Assembly: GCA_964522265.1 (NCBI GenBank)
Contig: CAZFVS010000064.1
Coordinates: forward strand, 1 to 6,171
Direction: 5' to 3'
Length of the DNA: 6,171 nt
DNA from: an uncultured Gammaproteobacteria bacterium
GTDB taxonomy: Bacteria > Patescibacteriota > Microgenomatia > Daviesbacterales > UBA10151
The notes below the pieces were generated by a model that was given only the letters and a program-made list of their open reading frames with translations, ran no database searches and was not told the origin of the DNA. Below, piece by piece: positions 71 through 6,171 of the stretch. Each line of letters begins with the position of its first letter. Position 1 is the stretch's first letter. A program made the position numbers and the translations under genes.

Positions 71-811
71 TTACTTTGAGAATTTAAAAGTGGCGAGTAT
101 TTTATTGAAATCCTTTTGATAAGAAACATTTAGTTCAACTGTAGAATCAAAACCTGTATTAAATGATATTCTCAAAATATAATCTGGCATTTCCAGATAA
201 ATATCTCTTTTCCCATTACTGGGGGAAGTAAAAATTATTTCTTTGCCCTCTCTTTTATCTATCACAACTGTTTTTGTCTGTACATTATCACCATAATAAC
301 TAAAATCCATATCAGATAGTTTTTTATTAGAGATAGCAATAAAAGAGATGTCTACGCCTTTGCGCAGAACATCACCACCAGCTTGCCCCCCACCTATAAT
401 ACGCTCTATGTCTTTTCCTAAAGAGACGCTTTCAATAGTAGTTTTCGATCCAAGGGTTTCTTTTAACTCATATCCATTAGGATATTTAATTTCATAACCT
501 CTTTGATTATTTGTATATGTTTTCCAATTTCCGGAAGGAACTGGATTTGACTGATTTGCAGTTTCATTATCTTTTGCAGATGAAGGCTGAGCGCTTGAAG
601 CCGCATTAGGCTCGTTAAATTCTTGTGTTATTTTGTAAGTTTTATTGACTGTATAAATTAATCCTCCTATATAAATTACTACTGCAAGAAGAATTACTAT
701 GGATATCCCAAAAATTAAAACTAATGCTGAAAATCCTGCCTGCCTGTCTGCCGACAGGCAAGACCGGCAGGCATGGCCTTTTTGTTTACACTGAGCGAAG
801 TCGAAGTGCAT
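71..811 (-). CDS. Membrane-anchored/secreted hypothetical protein, paralog 1 of a five-member W-x-TY...YP / [ST]FKF array
   Basis: 741-nt ORF (246 aa plus TAA). In order: basic leader MHFDFAQCKQKG; 14 codons encoded by a GC-rich nested palindrome; hydrophobic helix FSALVLIFGISIVILLAVVIYIGGLIY; S/A/N/P-rich linker; globular part opening WKTYTNNQRGYEIKYPNGYE and closing ILATFKFSK-stop. The four other minus-strand ORFs show the same motif order. No family name is asserted. Confidence 0.85.
   Translation of the reverse strand: MHFDFAQCKQKGHACRSCLSADRQAGFSALVLIFGISIVILLAVVIYIGGLIYTVNKTYKITQEFNEPNAASSAQPSSAKDNETANQSNPVPSGNWKTYTNNQRGYEIKYPNGYELKETLGSKTTIESVSLGKDIERIIGGGQAGGDVLRKGVDISFIAISNKKLSDMDFSYYGDNVQTKTVVIDKREGKEIIFTSPSNGKRDIYLEMPDYILRISFNTGFDSTVELNVSYQKDFNKILATFKFSK
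734..778. repeat. Nested GC-rich palindrome lying in frame inside paralog 1 (42 coding nt, 734-775, encoding HACRSCLSADRQAG)
   Basis: Inner hairpin is tgcctgtc-tgcc-gacaggca (741-760; 8-bp perfect stem, 4-nt loop). Outer stem is cctgcc (735-740) paired with ggcagg (766-771), with a 5-nt bulge agacc. The surrounding DNA is AT-rich. Confidence 0.85.
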
Positions 812-817: not shown

Positions 818-834
818 AGCATAGCATATATAAT
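818..834. promoter_or_regulatory. Putative back-to-back -10 elements for paralog 1 (minus) and hicB (plus)
   Basis: On the minus strand, tatgct (818-823) is followed by a 6-nt spacer aaattt and then ATG (811-809). On the plus strand, tataat (829-834) is followed by a 6-nt spacer agttcc and then ATG at 841. Neither gene has a purine-rich SD. The whole intergenic gap is 29 nt. Confidence 0.4.
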
Positions 835-1219: not shown

Positions 1220-1238
1220 ATGATGCCCGCACCGCCGG

Positions 1239-1291
1239 TTGGCAAGCACACTTCGTCGATATCTATTTATTATAATTTCTTTGCTTGCCAA
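1239..1291. repeat. 10-bp perfect inverted repeat with a 33-nt AT-rich loop, in the convergent hicA/paralog-2 intergenic region
   Basis: ttggcaagca (1239-1248) is the exact reverse complement of tgcttgccaa (1282-1291). GC-rich flanks (gcccgcaccgccgg upstream) stand out against the AT-rich background. No T-tract follows on either strand. Confidence 0.8.
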
Positions 1292-1338: not shown

Positions 1339-1989
1339 TTACTTTAAGAATTTAAAAGTAGAGAGGATTTTATTGTAAATCTCATGATATTTTTCTTGAT
1401 CTTTAACTGGATAGCCAGCGCTGTAAGGACTAAAACCAACTGAAATATAACTGTTATTAGTTTTTTCAAAGAAAACTACCTCAGAACCCAGTGGAGCAGG
1501 TTCAGAGTCAGTTCTGTAAACCCTCACGCCATTTATCATCTCAGTCTTGTATTTATAACCAGATTTATCTAAATAGCTCTTCACACCTTTGTTACCTTTA
1601 TTAATATATAAATGAAACTCATGAGACTCTTGGCCAATATATAATTTTTTCCCAGAATTTATATAAATAGTACAATCCTTATCTTCAACACAGTCAATTA
1701 ACTCCCAATTCAAAGGATACTTAAGAGAATACCCACCTTTATTTTTATAATCACTCCACCCTGCAGTTTCATCTGCTGTAGATGCCTCGGGTTCTGGGGA
1801 AGTTTGATCAGAGGTAAAAACCGGAAGAGGTGGGGCAGATACAGGGAATTTCGGTTTACTCAAGATAATATATCCGGCAACTCCTCCAGCAATGAAGATC
1901 AAAGCCAAAATAACAGCCACAACTGGCGCAAACCCTGCCTGCCAGCAGGCATGGCCTTTTTGTTTACACTGAGCGAAGTCGAAGTTCAT
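1339..1989 (-). CDS. Membrane-anchored/secreted hypothetical protein, paralog 2
   Basis: 651-nt ORF (216 aa plus TAA). In order: leader MNFDFAQCKQKG; 7 palindrome-encoded codons HACWQAG; helix FAPVVAVILALIFIAGGVAGYIIL; P/S/T/E-rich linker; domain opening WSDYKNKGGYSLKYPLNWE and closing ILSTFKFLK-stop. Confidence 0.87.
   Translation of the reverse strand: MNFDFAQCKQKGHACWQAGFAPVVAVILALIFIAGGVAGYIILSKPKFPVSAPPLPVFTSDQTSPEPEASTADETAGWSDYKNKGGYSLKYPLNWELIDCVEDKDCTIYINSGKKLYIGQESHEFHLYINKGNKGVKSYLDKSGYKYKTEMINGVRVYRTDSEPAPLGSEVVFFEKTNNSYISVGFSPYSAGYPVKDQEKYHEIYNKILSTFKFLK
1933..1956. repeat. GC-rich palindrome in frame in paralog 2 (21 coding nt, 1933-1953)
   Basis: In ccctgcctgccagcaggcatggcc, tgcctgc (1936-1942) pairs with gcaggca (1945-1951). 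Realistically this gives a 6-bp stem with a 4-nt loop. The flanks are identical to the copy at 3218-3241. Confidence 0.85.
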
Positions 1990-1995: not shown

Positions 1996-2001
1996 ATAAT
2001 A
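1996..2001 (-). promoter_or_regulatory. Putative -10 hexamer (tattat) 6 nt upstream of the paralog 2 ATG
   Basis: The minus strand reads tattat-taattt-ATG. No SD-like sequence is present. The same geometry occurs at four other genes in this window. Confidence 0.35.
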
Positions 2002-2353: not shown

Positions 2354-3253
2354 TTAATCTATACAGATAGGAGGAGTTGGTTGACCGTTTTCAAAAAAGG
2401 TGAGGCATCCATAGATTAACTCATATTCACTGCATTGTCCTATGTTTCCTTGTCCCGTTTTACTAATACATTTGCCCTGACATTGGTCAGAATCTGTACA
2501 CTGCTTACCACCATCCAAAGTTTTTGGGTTGCATATAAGTTCCTCTAACATACCGCGAGGACCCCACTTACCTCCTATTTCTTTACATTGTTGTTCAGTT
2601 AATCTGTTTTTATTATTTAAAAATTTAAATGCAGAAACAAAAGTTTCAAAATCTTTTGGATCTATTGGTTTACCATACATATGTTTTATCCAAGTGATAT
2701 GATAAATTTTTTTATCTTTTGGAATAAAAATATCGTCTTGATTAAACTGTCCTGGAATCTCTGTAGTCCTTTGGGCTTTTATCCCATCAATATTAATATC
2801 GCTAAGCTTGATCCAAGCCATATTTTTAATTTTCGTCAAGTATTGCTTGGTTGATAAATCTTCTGGGTTGTCTATAACTGAGATATAAACCAGATCTGCT
2901 GATTCGCAATTAAAAGGACTGACGCCGCTTGGGCAAGGCTTAACTTTTGGAGATACCACAATCCATGGTTTATCATACCCTTCCCTTTCTTCTTCACCCA
3001 CCTCCCAATCTAAAGGGTGTTTAAAAGTAAATCCTAAATCCTGATTTTTATAAGTTTGCCAATTGTTTTTCTCGTCTTCTCTGCCGGAAATACTAGCAGG
3101 TGAGGGTTTCGGTATAATAACTTTAGAACTCTGAAATCTAATTTGGAATAAATAAAATCCTCCACCCACCAAACCTACCAGAATTATCAAACTTATTATT
3201 AAAATAATCGGCGCAAACCCTGCCTGCCGACTGGCATGGCCTTTTTGCATCAT
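2354..3253 (-). CDS. Membrane-anchored/secreted hypothetical protein, paralog 3, with an extra C-terminal 8-Cys module
   Basis: 900-nt ORF (299 aa plus TAA). It starts MMQKG, then palindrome-encoded HASRQAG, then helix FAPIILIISLIILVGLVGGGFYLF. The domain opens NWQTYKNQDLGFTFKHPLDWE. The family C-terminus FVSAFKFL is followed by 87 further residues containing 8 Cys. Its ATG overlaps the TGA of the upstream paralog (ATGA). Confidence 0.87.
   Translation of the reverse strand: MMQKGHASRQAGFAPIILIISLIILVGLVGGGFYLFQIRFQSSKVIIPKPSPASISGREDEKNNWQTYKNQDLGFTFKHPLDWEVGEEEREGYDKPWIVVSPKVKPCPSGVSPFNCESADLVYISVIDNPEDLSTKQYLTKIKNMAWIKLSDINIDGIKAQRTTEIPGQFNQDDIFIPKDKKIYHITWIKHMYGKPIDPKDFETFVSAFKFLNNKNRLTEQQCKEIGGKWGPRGMLEELICNPKTLDGGKQCTDSDQCQGKCISKTGQGNIGQCSEYELIYGCLTFFENGQPTPPICID
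3218..3241. repeat. GC-rich palindrome in frame in paralog 3 (21 coding nt, 3218-3238)
   Basis: ccctgcctgccgactggcatggcc has the same arms as 1933-1956. Only the central 4 nt differ (cgac vs cagc on the plus strand). Confidence 0.8.
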
Positions 3254-3981
3254 TTGAGGAGTTTGAAACTTGCAAGGATTTGTTCACCAATACTGCTTTC
3301 ATTTGAATCAGTAAACGTCTTAAACAGGAATATTTTTTCTTCTCTTCCAAGCAACACTATTTTAGGTTTTCCCGGTTGATAATAAATCACTGCTGATTTG
3401 GCCAGTTGTCCACTGACTGTGGCTACATCATTAGGAAAAACATGCACATTGGTTGCGGCATCAAAATCACCCCATAAAAAAGGATAGTACCAATAGCGTT
3501 TATACCAACCCTGCTCATCTAAACCGTTCAGATTTTCAAAAACCCAAACAGAAAATGGAGCTGTATTAAAATTATTATCTTTGCCTAAAACTGCTACTGC
3601 CTCCAAAACCTTACCTGGTTCATACCCCACATAACTTGAGAAGTTTTTCCTGAAGTTTCCATTCCCTCTTGTATCAAAATCCGCCTCATTATCTTCTTTG
3701 ACCTCCAGCTCTTTTGGATACCTGAATTCAAATTCTGAATTTTTATCTGTATAAGTTTTTAGCATATCTATAGCAGCAGACGGACTGGGTTTTGGACTGT
3801 TGAAGATTTTTGAGAGGCCAACCGAGGGAGAATCTACCGAGCCTGGAGTCAGGTTCCTGTAAATTACCATTCCTGAGATAACCAAAACTGCAGCAATCAG
3901 CAAAATAATGAGGAGAGCAGAACCTCTTTGTTTGCACTGAGCGGACTTGTGGTGAGCGGAGTCGAACCAACCGAAGTGCAT
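3250..3981 (-). CDS. Membrane-anchored/secreted hypothetical protein, paralog 4 (no palindrome insert)
   Basis: 732-nt ORF (243 aa plus TGA). The expanded leader MHFGWFDSAHHKSAQCKQRG runs directly into helix SALLIILLIAAVLVISGMVIY. The domain opens LKTYTDKNSEFEFRYPKELE and closes ILASFKLLK-stop. Confidence 0.87.
   Translation of the reverse strand: MHFGWFDSAHHKSAQCKQRGSALLIILLIAAVLVISGMVIYRNLTPGSVDSPSVGLSKIFNSPKPSPSAAIDMLKTYTDKNSEFEFRYPKELEVKEDNEADFDTRGNGNFRKNFSSYVGYEPGKVLEAVAVLGKDNNFNTAPFSVWVFENLNGLDEQGWYKRYWYYPFLWGDFDAATNVHVFPNDVATVSGQLAKSAVIYYQPGKPKIVLLGREEKIFLFKTFTDSNESSIGEQILASFKLLK
3922..3981 (-). repeat. Leader module copy D (expanded variant)
   Basis: It has the same ends as copies A and B (aatttATGcacttcg ... 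gctcagtg.aaacaaa.agg.). Internally it carries extra sequence, including a direct repeat tccgctca ... tccgctca with 15-nt periodicity on the coding strand. Confidence 0.75.
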
Positions 3982-3987
3982 AAATTC

Positions 3988-3993
3988 ATAATA
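3988..3993 (-). promoter_or_regulatory. Putative -10 hexamer (tattat) 6 nt upstream of the paralog 4 ATG
   Basis: The minus strand reads tattat-gaattt-ATG, inside the 20-nt gap after the paralog 5 stop. No SD is present. Confidence 0.3.
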
Positions 3994-4001
3994 CCATAAA
4001 G

Positions 4002-4613
4002 TTACGAACCTTGACCAAAGCGGATTTTAGAGATCAGTTCTTCAATTTGAGTGGAAAAATCATCCCTGCTTGATGCAGGAGAGTTATCTGAAGAAACTCT
4101 GTGGGTGATATCCAGCGGCGGTTTCAAAATACACCAATGGTATTTGGTGTAACCTGCGATAGAAGCTTTGGAGCGGATTACTTGAATATCCCCAAGATTG
4201 ACAGTTTCTGTAGAATCCTTCAGACAGGTTGTCACATCCGTTAAAATGGTCATGGGTTTTTGTGCCACTTCACACTTCACGCTTTTTATGTCTGTACTGT
4301 TTGTGGGATCAAGCTCAAAATTTAGAGAATTACCGCATGTTAAAAGGCCCCATTTCTCGGGATAAAAAATTTGGAACCCTGCTCCCCGGTATGTTTTAGT
4401 ACCTGGCATCTTACCATTAGTCTGTAAGGAGGGGGAAGGCGCCAAAGAAGATTTGGCCACAGCAGTAGCCGAGGGTTTTGCCGTGTTTGATTGGTTGCCT
4501 GTTTTTCTATTCTGAAACCCTTTGACAAAATAAAATATAGTCCCGGAAATAATAGCCAAAAGGATCAGCAATACTGACCCTGTAATCAGTAAAACCTTTG
4601 CTCTCTCATCCAT
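4002..4613 (-). CDS. Membrane-anchored/secreted hypothetical protein, paralog 5 (most divergent, lacks the shared leader module)
   Basis: The supplied ORF (to 4631) begins at a GTG. I prefer the in-frame ATG at 4613 (MDERAKVLLITGSVLLILLAIISGTIFYF), because a -10-like taaaat lies within the GTG-extended part. An S/P/A/T linker follows, then KTYRGAGFQIFYPEKWG, and the protein closes LISKIRFGQGS-stop. The start is uncertain by 6 codons. Confidence 0.8.
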   Translation of the reverse strand: MDERAKVLLITGSVLLILLAIISGTIFYFVKGFQNRKTGNQSNTAKPSATAVAKSSLAPSPSLQTNGKMPGTKTYRGAGFQIFYPEKWGLLTCGNSLNFELDPTNSTDIKSVKCEVAQKPMTILTDVTTCLKDSTETVNLGDIQVIRSKASIAGYTKYHWCILKPPLDITHRVSSDNSPASSRDDFSTQIEELISKIRFGQGS

Positions 4614-4616
4614 GAT

Positions 4617-4651
4617 CTGTAATTTTAGCACAAATTGGGTTAAAATTACAG
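4617..4651. promoter_or_regulatory. 11-bp perfect inverted repeat filling the divergent paralog-5/femAB intergenic region, each arm carrying an outward-facing taaaat
   Basis: ctgtaatttta (4617-4627) is the exact reverse complement of taaaattacag (4641-4651), with a 13-nt spacer. On the plus strand, taaaat (4641-4646) is 6 nt before ATG 4653. On the minus strand, taaaat is 8 nt before ATG 4613. Confidence 0.55.
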
Positions 4652-5678: not shown

Positions 5679-6171
5679 TGGACCTTTTACTTGTTTCAAC
5701 CATTTCAACAGTCGCTATCTGCTTACTCGGTCTTTCCTGGTTTGCCGGATCTGATGCCCCATTTGTGGCAACTAAATTGGATAACATTAAAGATGTTCTA
5801 AGATCAGCCGGATGCGGAAAAAACAGGGTGTTTTATGAGTTAGGCTCCGGGGATGGCAGGGTTGTGATCGAGGCCGCAAAGCTGGGCGCACAGGCAAATG
5901 GCGTAGAACAATCCTGGATCAGAGTGTTGTATTCAAGGTTTAAAGCTTGGCAGTTAGGCTTAGAAGATGCACATTTCTATCATGGCAATATTTTTGATAA
6001 AAACTACTTTCCTGCAGACATCATCTATATCTATCTTCTTTCAAAAGCAGTCCAGAGATTGGAGCAAAAACTAAAAAAAGAGCTGAAAAAAAATTCCGTA
6101 GTTATCACTCAAACTTATCATTTTAAAAACTGGAAACCATATAAAAAAATAGGTAATTTTTGGTTTTACCA
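5678..6171 (+). CDS. Membrane-anchored class I SAM-dependent methyltransferase (3' partial, runs off the window)
   Basis: Absent from the track because there is no stop in the window. I read the frame through with no stop codon. The ATG at 5678 overlaps the femAB TAA (TAATG). It has an N-terminal helix LLLVSTISTVAICLLGLSWF, then APFVAT, then the SAM motif I YELGSGDGRVVIEAAKLG, then GVEQS...SR..AW, and a late LEQKLKKEL...F.NWKP. Confidence 0.8.
   Translation, partial: MDLLLVSTISTVAICLLGLSWFAGSDAPFVATKLDNIKDVLRSAGCGKNRVFYELGSGDGRVVIEAAKLGAQANGVEQSWIRVLYSRFKAWQLGLEDAHFYHGNIFDKNYFPADIIYIYLLSKAVQRLEQKLKKELKKNSVVITQTYHFKNWKPYKKIGNFWFY

Follow-up and report, generated by a model that had tools for sequence, protein, structure and literature searches.

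GC-rich 20-nt palindromes inserted in frame in tandem membrane-protein genes of a Daviesbacteria-like genome: probable copies of a very small dispersed repeat

Palindromic repeats lying in frame within functional genes are reportedly known from Rickettsia, where Ogata and colleagues are said to have described Rickettsia palindromic elements (RPEs) in 2000. The small dispersed repeats SDR1-8 of the Nostocaceae, said to have been described by Elhai and colleagues in 2008, are reportedly 21-27 nt long, nested within copies of themselves and found inside tandem repeats and mini-elements. The GC clusters of yeast mitochondria are GC-rich palindromic mini-elements of a very AT-rich genome, present in frame in var1 and in the variable regions of RNA genes. 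Passages of PMC3733652 summarise the RPEs and place some repetitive extragenic palindromes (REPs) inside open reading frames (ORFs), including their N-termini and genes related to DNA repair or RNA. The window analysed here, a stretch of 6171 nt (37% GC) that is the entire contig of an NCBI metagenome-assembled genome (MAG), carries inserts of 21 and 42 nt, built on a GC-rich palindrome of 20 nt (the 20-mer), at one Gly/Phe codon junction of three tandem paralogous genes. We consider it likely that these inserts are a very small dispersed palindromic repeat of the REP, RPE or SDR kind, which the proteins tolerate as 7 or 14 additional residues on the cytoplasmic side.

The FemAB-family protein of the window is 66-69% identical to its counterparts in Candidatus Daviesbacteria MAGs (Microgenomates, candidate phyla radiation, CPR). 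The minus strand of the window encodes a tandem family of small membrane-anchored proteins, P1-P5, each with a short N-terminal tail, a single transmembrane (TM) helix and an ectodomain, either PsbP_2-like or unassigned, and each finishing in a conserved ..ILSTFKFLK. The genes and the junction sites are the following.

71-811, minus strand: P1, membrane-anchored paralog with N-terminal TM helix and ..FKFSK C-terminus
1339-1989, minus strand: P2, paralog
2354-3253, minus strand: P3, paralog with PsbP_2-like ectodomain and Cys-rich tail
3250-3981, minus strand: P4, paralog
4002-4631, minus strand: P5, paralog
734-775, minus strand: P1 insert of 42 nt, ...CKQKG-HACRSCLSADRQAG-FSALV, an outer palindrome copy (764-775 plus 734-742) enclosing a second 21-nt copy
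743-763, minus strand: inner nested unit of P1, T plus CTTGCCTGTCGGCAGACAGG; match to the 20-mer at 743-762 with 3 mismatches
1933-1953, minus strand: P2 insert of 21 nt, ...CKQKG-HACWQAG-FAPVV; 20-mer copy at 1934-1953 with 2 mismatches
3218-3238, minus strand: P3 insert of 21 nt, MMQKG-HASRQAG-FAPII; 20-mer copy at 3219-3238 with 3 mismatches, the most decayed of the three
3921/3922, minus strand: empty Gly/Ser junction of P4, ...CKQRG/SALLI, no palindrome insert

A preliminary description of the window had placed in-frame inserts of 42, 21, 21 and 0 nt at the Gly junction of P1, P2, P3 and P4, and codon by codon every coordinate is correct. The inserts are the sharpest GC-rich islands of the window. 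The consensus of the aligned copies is a perfect 20-nt palindrome, CCTGCCTGCCGGCAGGCAGG, and the three window sites lie within 2-3 mismatches of it, where 200 shuffles gave an expectation of 0. The junction has the layout GG-Y-20-mer-N-TTT: C or T precedes the element, and the position following it takes any base (pairwise difference 0.78), in the manner of the synonymous third position of a Gly codon. The Gly codon that every version was said to regenerate does reappear, but it is not a separate feature; it follows from the ...CAGG end of the element and from its site, with the GG of the Gly codon before it and the third base after it. An insertion of 20 nt would shift the frame, and therefore only multiples of three survive in genes. 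The 42-nt version does hold, as had been claimed, a second copy inside the first: it consists of CATGCCTGCCGG, the 21-nt inner unit at 743-763 and CAGGCAGGA. Its outer copy, CATGCCTGCCGGCAGGCAGG, is identical to those of two other loci, L263 and L265 (L001-L266 label the compared loci and contigs). The inner unit follows the ...TGCCGG of the outer copy, the shared GG leaving a 2-nt ambiguity in the insertion point, and on this reading it is inserted at, or at most 2 nt from, the centre of the outer palindrome. A homologue search with P1 returned P1 alone, and the nested copy is thus without an allelic comparison.

Comparison of filled and empty orthologous sites, which the preliminary description had proposed, identifies the inserts as insertions, since empty sites exist. 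The P3 ortholog is empty in L004 and L009 (MQKG/FAPILIL), as is a P2-type gene in L002 (MQKG/FSPVVVV); the P4 ortholog of L004 and L009 reads MQRG/SAP (L004 start MQRGSAP), and about 30 further genes in Daviesbacteria loci have MQKG-type N-termini. Two adjacent paralogs of L265 both open with ATG AAA AAT CAA AAA GGC; one continues with TTT GCA CCA, and the other has exactly 21 extra bases, CAT GCC TGC CGG CAG GCA GGT, ahead of TTT. A search among 1.84 billion representative proteins gave 989 family members at E<=0.001, and an insert at QKG/F is present in 6 of the 150 best family representatives (HACRQAG twice, RACRQAG, PACRQAG, window P2 and window P3). The P2 ortholog of L009 and L004 is filled by a copy, CTTGCCTGCTGGCAGGCGGG, with three differences from that of the window, although the FemAB proteins share no more than about 66-69% identity. 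We also noted an in-frame TAG in the TM segment of the L004 P2 ortholog (~6105-6113; also in L005-L007), where L009 and the window have TTG; the TAG-bearing gene of L004-L007 may be either a pseudogene or a gene restarted downstream.

The copies of the window share a history. The outer copy of P1, P2 and P3 have in common a derived C-to-A change at element position 2, and the leaders of P1 and P2 are identical at 51 of 53 positions (-5 to +48), although their gene bodies are only 46% identical in DNA and 28% in protein. Three independent insertions in this genome, a possibility left by the preliminary description, are thus not required: the shared change and the near-identical leaders point to copying between paralogs. 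The three filled sites would then represent one insert lineage, copied between paralogs with a conserved 5' cassette (promoter, ATG, module A, a second insert described below, and QKG), and a later insertion into the middle of the P1 copy would have brought the insert of that gene to 42 nt. The difference among nine junction copies of different contigs is 0.096 per site within the element and 0.41 in the next 24 nt; at third codon positions the values are 0.10 in the element and 0.58 in the flank. Either the junction copies are younger than the paralogs, by repeated insertion or short conversion tracts, or they are constrained at the nucleotide level.

The 20-mer is widespread outside this family. 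Exact CCTGCCTGCCGGCAGGCAGG was found in 35 stretches of a viral collection, with up to six copies on one 29.5-kb contig, and in at least 120 stretches of a metagenome collection; among the matches listed, the contigs span 29-71% GC, most of them 30-50%. Four control palindromes, two with shuffled halves of the same composition and two with other tetranucleotide repeats (CCAG or CCGT replacing CCTG), had 0 matches in the viral collection. When 80 loci (1.38 Mb) around Microgenomates FemAB genes were scanned, about 10 intact or decayed copies appeared, exact or with 1-3 changes, in quite different contexts (L044, L078, L043, L040 and L034); that of L034 is an exact copy at the QKG/F junction of another paralog N-terminus. 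Halves spaced 1-31 nt apart are rare (20 stretches over 31 spacings, without a common interior, a few of them nested or tandem copies), and therefore the repeat unit is the ungapped 20-mer. The same rarity and the lack of a shared interior led us to reject a minimal MITE (a miniature transposable element bounded by inverted repeats) with two 10-bp terminal repeats around a variable cargo. Nested or tandem forms occur in L252, L259 and L248 as well. A published description of the 20-mer, its halves or the encoded peptides was not found in the open literature, and topic searches were blank for CPR bacteria, in agreement with the preliminary description, whose author knew of none.

With these data, membership of the inserts in a dispersed 20-mer repeat family is, in our judgement, very probable. 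The proposal of a small hairpin repeat that inserts or expands in the leader region is thus supported as to the repeat, but not as to its confinement to the leaders of this family, since copies lie in other genes, in tRNAs and between genes. We found neither a pattern explained by protein constraint alone nor a motif present nowhere else and simply lost by P4, the two outcomes that the preliminary description had named as contrary to it. A sequencing adaptor or assembly artefact was rejected in view of decayed copies at orthologous sites of independent assemblies (window/L001, L004-L007 and L009), of the in-frame copies in conserved genes and of the zero control matches.

The composition of the element, (CCTG)2CC/GG(CAGG)2, which pairs in two registers, raises the question of a local origin, in which slippage of the CCTG/CAGG tetranucleotide together with template switching during replication would build palindromes in place. 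Template switching makes perfect hairpins, according to passages of PMC8794818; P1 resembles a doubled form, and the T9/A16 double change in its inner copy would, from a reading of the sequence, keep pairing in the shifted register. The same exact 20-mer is nevertheless found in more than 150 unrelated contigs, both the two tetranucleotide-repeat and the two shuffled-half controls had 0 matches, and a single clean block of 21 nt is all that separates filled from empty paralogs at the junction, the empty site having no precursor repeat. We therefore regard an origin in place as improbable.

As to location, a long stop-free frame spans 29% of the copies as against 67% of random sites in the same contigs, and the 20-mer is mostly intergenic. 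In-frame copies were nonetheless present in all ten hosts tested: SecA, a CopA-type ATPase, a GH115 hydrolase, a class II aminoacyl-tRNA synthetase, PurH, PheS, UvrC, DinB, LigA (NAD-dependent DNA ligase) and RNase J. Among the Microgenomates loci, the L044 copy lies inside a UvrD/PcrA-type helicase (..DKTKN-LPAGRQ-ENAITLMTLH), that of L078 in the linker of an RNase H, and that of L043 in another ORF. Aligned with 23 helicase and 14 RNase H orthologs, the helicase and RNase H copies fall in variable loops absent from orthologs, and in other lineages the same loops hold other GC-rich mini-sequences (PSTSLRAG, HPELVEG, ARNAKQ...VILGNDSDSRI). All three reading frames are used (PACRQAG, LPAGRQ and CLPAGR), which is possible because the palindrome CCTGCCTGCCGGCAGGCAGG has no stop codon in any frame of either strand.

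RNA genes are also involved. In L112 (2239-2330), a tRNA-Met called by ARAGORN and Rfam carries the 20-mer as a long variable arm, and the 20-mer is found at the D-loop of tRNA-like 5' parts in L040 (~898-977), L119 (~493-560), L195 (twice, ~640-700 and 815-875) and L201 (1-60). The tRNA genes and tRNA-like parts that carry it, L157 (~320-380) among them, do so in the variable arm, D-loop or T-loop; in L119 a group I intron lies at 1182-1416, downstream of the tRNA-like part. The 20-mer is often found inside widespread GC-rich mini-elements of the types GTCATTCTGAGCG...CGAAGAATC and CCCTGAGCTTGTCGAAGG (L200 2548, L141 683, L178 2046, L124 2812 and L209 1124), and many copies, inspected by eye, lie inside short-period tandem repeats (L125, L168, L165, L236, L140 and L043). 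Simple flank-repeat statistics of the 20-mer copies are equal to those of the controls. The copies inside mini-elements and tandem repeats suggest a community of tiny elements nesting in one another.

The promoters of the paralog family bear on how the inserts might act in the mRNA, and in the window we observed the following boxes.

3988-3993, minus strand: -10-like hexamer TATTAT, 6 nt upstream of the P4 ATG (site 4017..3988)
1996-2001, minus strand: -10-like hexamer, P2 equivalent
818-823, minus strand: -10-like hexamer TATGCT, P1 equivalent

Of 36 family genes in related loci, 19 have a TANNNT hexamer with its end 6 nt ahead of the ATG, and a Shine-Dalgarno sequence is not visible. Many genes of the family may accordingly be expressed from leaderless mRNAs.

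Such an arrangement would put the hairpin near the 5' end, where it could be a nucleic-acid structure selected in these genes, either a 5'-proximal hairpin tuning translation or stability of leaderless mRNAs or a palindrome bound by a protein. Consistent with selection, the interior of the element is far more conserved than adjoining synonymous sites, and the insert recurs at one junction in several members of the family. Furthermore, the first 90 nt of the P1 mRNA fold strongly (-35.2 kcal/mol, z -4.07 against shuffles). For P2 and P3 the fold of the same region is no stronger than that of its shuffles (z +0.21 and -0.10), so that the description of the inserts as hairpins is sound for P1 but weak for the 21-nt forms. 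None of the 8 pairs changes on both sides in the nine copies, and shuffled controls do as well. Position 2 is occupied by all four bases while its partner is a fixed G, so that 4 of 9 copies lack the pair and 2 others have it as a G-U wobble; this variation alters the first inserted residue (P, H, R or L). The insert is missing from most orthologs and paralogs, it is also present in genes that are not leaderless, whose start overlaps an upstream stop (window P3 and L265 1112), and the identical 20-mer turns up in housekeeping genes unrelated to this family, in tRNAs and between genes. A structured cis-regulatory RNA found no support either, with no compensatory pairs among the nine copies, and Rfam and ARAGORN runs on the window returned no relevant RNA family and no tRNA. 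The second option of the preliminary description, selection for a structure that controls translation or serves as a site of recombination, thus loses ground for want of covariation and through its absence from most orthologs, and we hold a selected structure to be unlikely.

Could the inserts be noncoding, with translation starting downstream and the hairpins lying in a 5' untranslated region that resembles an ORF? Many N-terminal "intragenic" REPs may be extragenic (Di Nocera et al. 2013, PMC3733652), and in the L004-L007 population an in-frame TAG follows the insert and the gene caller began downstream. The frame of the sister genome L009 is intact, all lengths are multiples of three (21 and 42; 24, 27 and 48 for module A) and stop-free, and a -10-like box directly precedes the upstream ATG. 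The starts of P3 and L265 1112 overlap an upstream stop as ATGA, that of P3 overlapping the stop of P4, which puts the P3 insert inside the coding region. In addition, a downstream start would drop the only positive charges ahead of the TM helix. An untranslated location is accordingly very improbable in our view. Two other candidates were rejected. An intrinsic terminator was flagged only at 1936-1951, on the plus strand and antisense to P2, where the T run merely complements Lys codons, and the element lies 15-80 nt inside coding sequences. A type IV pilin-like (class III) cleavage site at G/F would require a Glu at +5, which is absent from FSALVLI, FAPVVAV and FAPIILI, and there is no pilin domain.

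The layout of the family itself brings in a further alternative, that the palindrome is a recombination site or hotspot driving cassette exchange or switching among tandem surface-protein paralogs. The 5' ends (leader, TM helix and linker) and the 3' ends of the paralogs are conserved and their middles very divergent (56-121 against 1324-1389, 764-831 against 1942-2009), N-terminal cassettes are common to otherwise different proteins (P0002 and P0003), and palindromes are in general recombinogenic. The conserved ends and divergent middles by themselves suggest cassette exchange or diversifying selection on what would be a surface-protein family. The window contains no recombinase gene, however, the paralogs are all in direct orientation, many of them have the cassette without the palindrome, and the palindrome also occurs outside this family; a recombination site is hence a most doubtful explanation. 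A leader-only protein search yielded zero candidates, and exact-protein look-ups found no protein on record identical to the FemAB-family protein, P1 or P3.

We return to the insertion of a small dispersed repeat. A stop-free copy that lands in a tolerant spot of a gene, adding a multiple of three (here 20 nt + 1), could persist and be translated. In this Daviesbacteria-like family the tolerant spot would be the four-residue cytoplasmic tail M-Q-K-G before the TM helix, where the insert adds xACRQAG and would keep an Arg beside the helix; the extra residues would be translated and nearly neutral. The element itself would be a non-autonomous selfish palindrome moved in trans by machinery recognising the hairpin or the palindrome, and for mobilisation of this kind we see about equal chances either way. 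The flanks of the 20-mer show a weak A|T preference next to the element, and those of the window copies are AAAGG(C/T) and (N)TTT.

Several points weigh against a selfish, tolerated repeat. The 167 non-redundant copies show no conserved flanks, no tetranucleotide tag and no consistent target duplication. No mobilising enzyme was found: a tblastn search of the 266 loci (2.57 Mb, with flanks so short that an absence is weak evidence) gave one Y1_Tnp gene (L143, PF01797). Several contigs of 150 kb to 1.2 Mb contain a single exact stretch, among the matches listed, and a purely selfish repeat would not ordinarily recur as an exact sequence in very different genomes. Conservation at the nucleotide level among the nine junction copies could mean a function of the sequence itself, and the translation of the insert is something that we infer. 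The standard REP model does not explain copies that are so few per contig and, at the same time, exactly conserved in very different genomes.

At L143 2428-3526, three REP copies of the classical GTAG-tagged kind, GGTAGTCGGGCTCGTCCCTGAGCCCGAC, surround the Y1 (IS200-like or RAYT-like) transposase gene and its partial duplicate. The gene lies beside its own, different REP, and its distance of ~450 nt from a 20-mer copy is probably a coincidence; with a single Y1 case and an unrelated REP, we rejected a link to IS200 elements or to REP-associated tyrosine transposases (RAYTs). Insertion into hairpin loops, an idea drawn from the tRNA loops, the GCAAA-AAGGN-TTTGC site and the nesting at the centre, was also rejected as a rule of general validity, since flank complementarity and predicted hairpin-loop context are those of random sites.

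P1, P2 and P4 have a further GC-rich insert in frame, module A (core TTCGACTTCGCTCAG), which separates the ATG from CAA-AAA-GG.

785-808, minus strand: module A, short form of 24 nt in P1, CACTTCGACTTCGCTCAGTGTAAA, HFDFAQCK
1963-1986, minus strand: module A, short form of 24 nt in P2
3931-3978, minus strand: module A, long form of 48 nt in P4, HFGWFDSAHHKSAQCK

Module A behaves like the 20-mer insert. It is missing from orthologs, and orthologs and paralogs begin directly with MQKG; its long form is also present in the P2 ortholog of L009 and L004. The core TTCGACTTCGCTCAG is dispersed in other Daviesbacteria paralogs, in the helicase loop (PSTSLRAG) and in intergenic DNA. In L266 module A is read in a different frame, MPASIKLSVNQKG.

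Other remnants and mini-elements were seen on the plus strand and between genes. At 1221-1277 (plus strand), DDARTAGWQAHFVDIYLL, ending in a stop codon, is what is left of the C-terminus of a G5/3D-domain gene; L004 (6675-7424) and L002 (10625-11314) have this gene intact, and in the window a HicB/HicA pair (hicBA, 841-1219) occupies the place of its body. A second remnant (..WSARYVDIYL) lies at ~1312-1345, and positions 1-70 of the window also end such a gene. Between the two gene remnants, at 1293-1325, is a GC-rich mini-element, CCTGAGCTTGTCGAAGGGCTGGAGCGCCAGG, of the "PELVEG / PFDKLR" type; the L044 RNase H contains a mini-element of this type in frame (HPELVEG).

The odd GC-rich peptide insertions seen among the proteins of uncultivated bacteria (xACRQAG, LPAGRQ, FDFAQ and PSTSLRAG) can thus be explained as repeats at the nucleotide level, and such repeats within ORFs bear on gene calling, the choice of start sites, alignments and structure prediction. 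Few cases of selfish DNA within coding sequence are known, and the 20-mer, 5-7 times shorter than RPEs, would be one more. An exact 20-bp sequence at low copy in very different genomes is not predicted by current REP/RAYT models and points to another mechanism of mobilisation or maintenance. Tentatively, and with more doubt than confidence, we suggest that CCTGCCTGCCGGCAGGCAGG, a perfect palindrome of 20 bp, may rank among the smallest of known mobile elements. It would be active in very different lineages, or brought into them again and again (contigs of 29-71% GC, CPR included), would settle in essential genes and tRNAs, nest in itself and in other mini-elements, and be moved by widely shared machinery; with module A and related mini-elements it may form a general source of small in-frame insertions in proteins of AT-rich uncultivated bacteria.

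How does the 20-mer compare with the described systems? Like REPs and REPINs (PMC3733652; PMC3116915), it is a short GC-rich palindrome (REPs are 20-40 bp), mostly extragenic, with some copies in ORFs. It differs in having neither the GTAG/CGTC tag nor a conserved flank, in being perfect and loop-less, in an apparently low density of exact copies, where REPs number tens to hundreds per genome, and in showing no RAYT association in 2.57 Mb; REP families, moreover, are species-specific, whereas the exact 20-mer is common to very different genomes. The comparison with RPEs made by the preliminary description was apt, given the in-frame insertions in P1-P3, in the helicase, in the RNase H and in ten housekeeping-type genes. 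Both are palindromes in frame in genes of a small AT-rich genome, adding surface or loop residues, and both also occur in RNA genes and between genes; RPEs, however, measure ~100-150 bp and are confined to Rickettsia, whereas the present unit, of 20-21 nt, occurs in contigs whose base composition varies widely. The GC clusters of yeast mitochondria, in another host and with other sequences, offer an analogy only. In size, self-nesting and, as judged by eye, context the 20-mer is most like the SDRs of the Nostocaceae as these are described, and no mobilising machinery is known for either. What sets the two apart is that SDRs are reported only in the Nostocaceae, and that the in-frame colonisation of housekeeping genes is prominent for the 20-mer.

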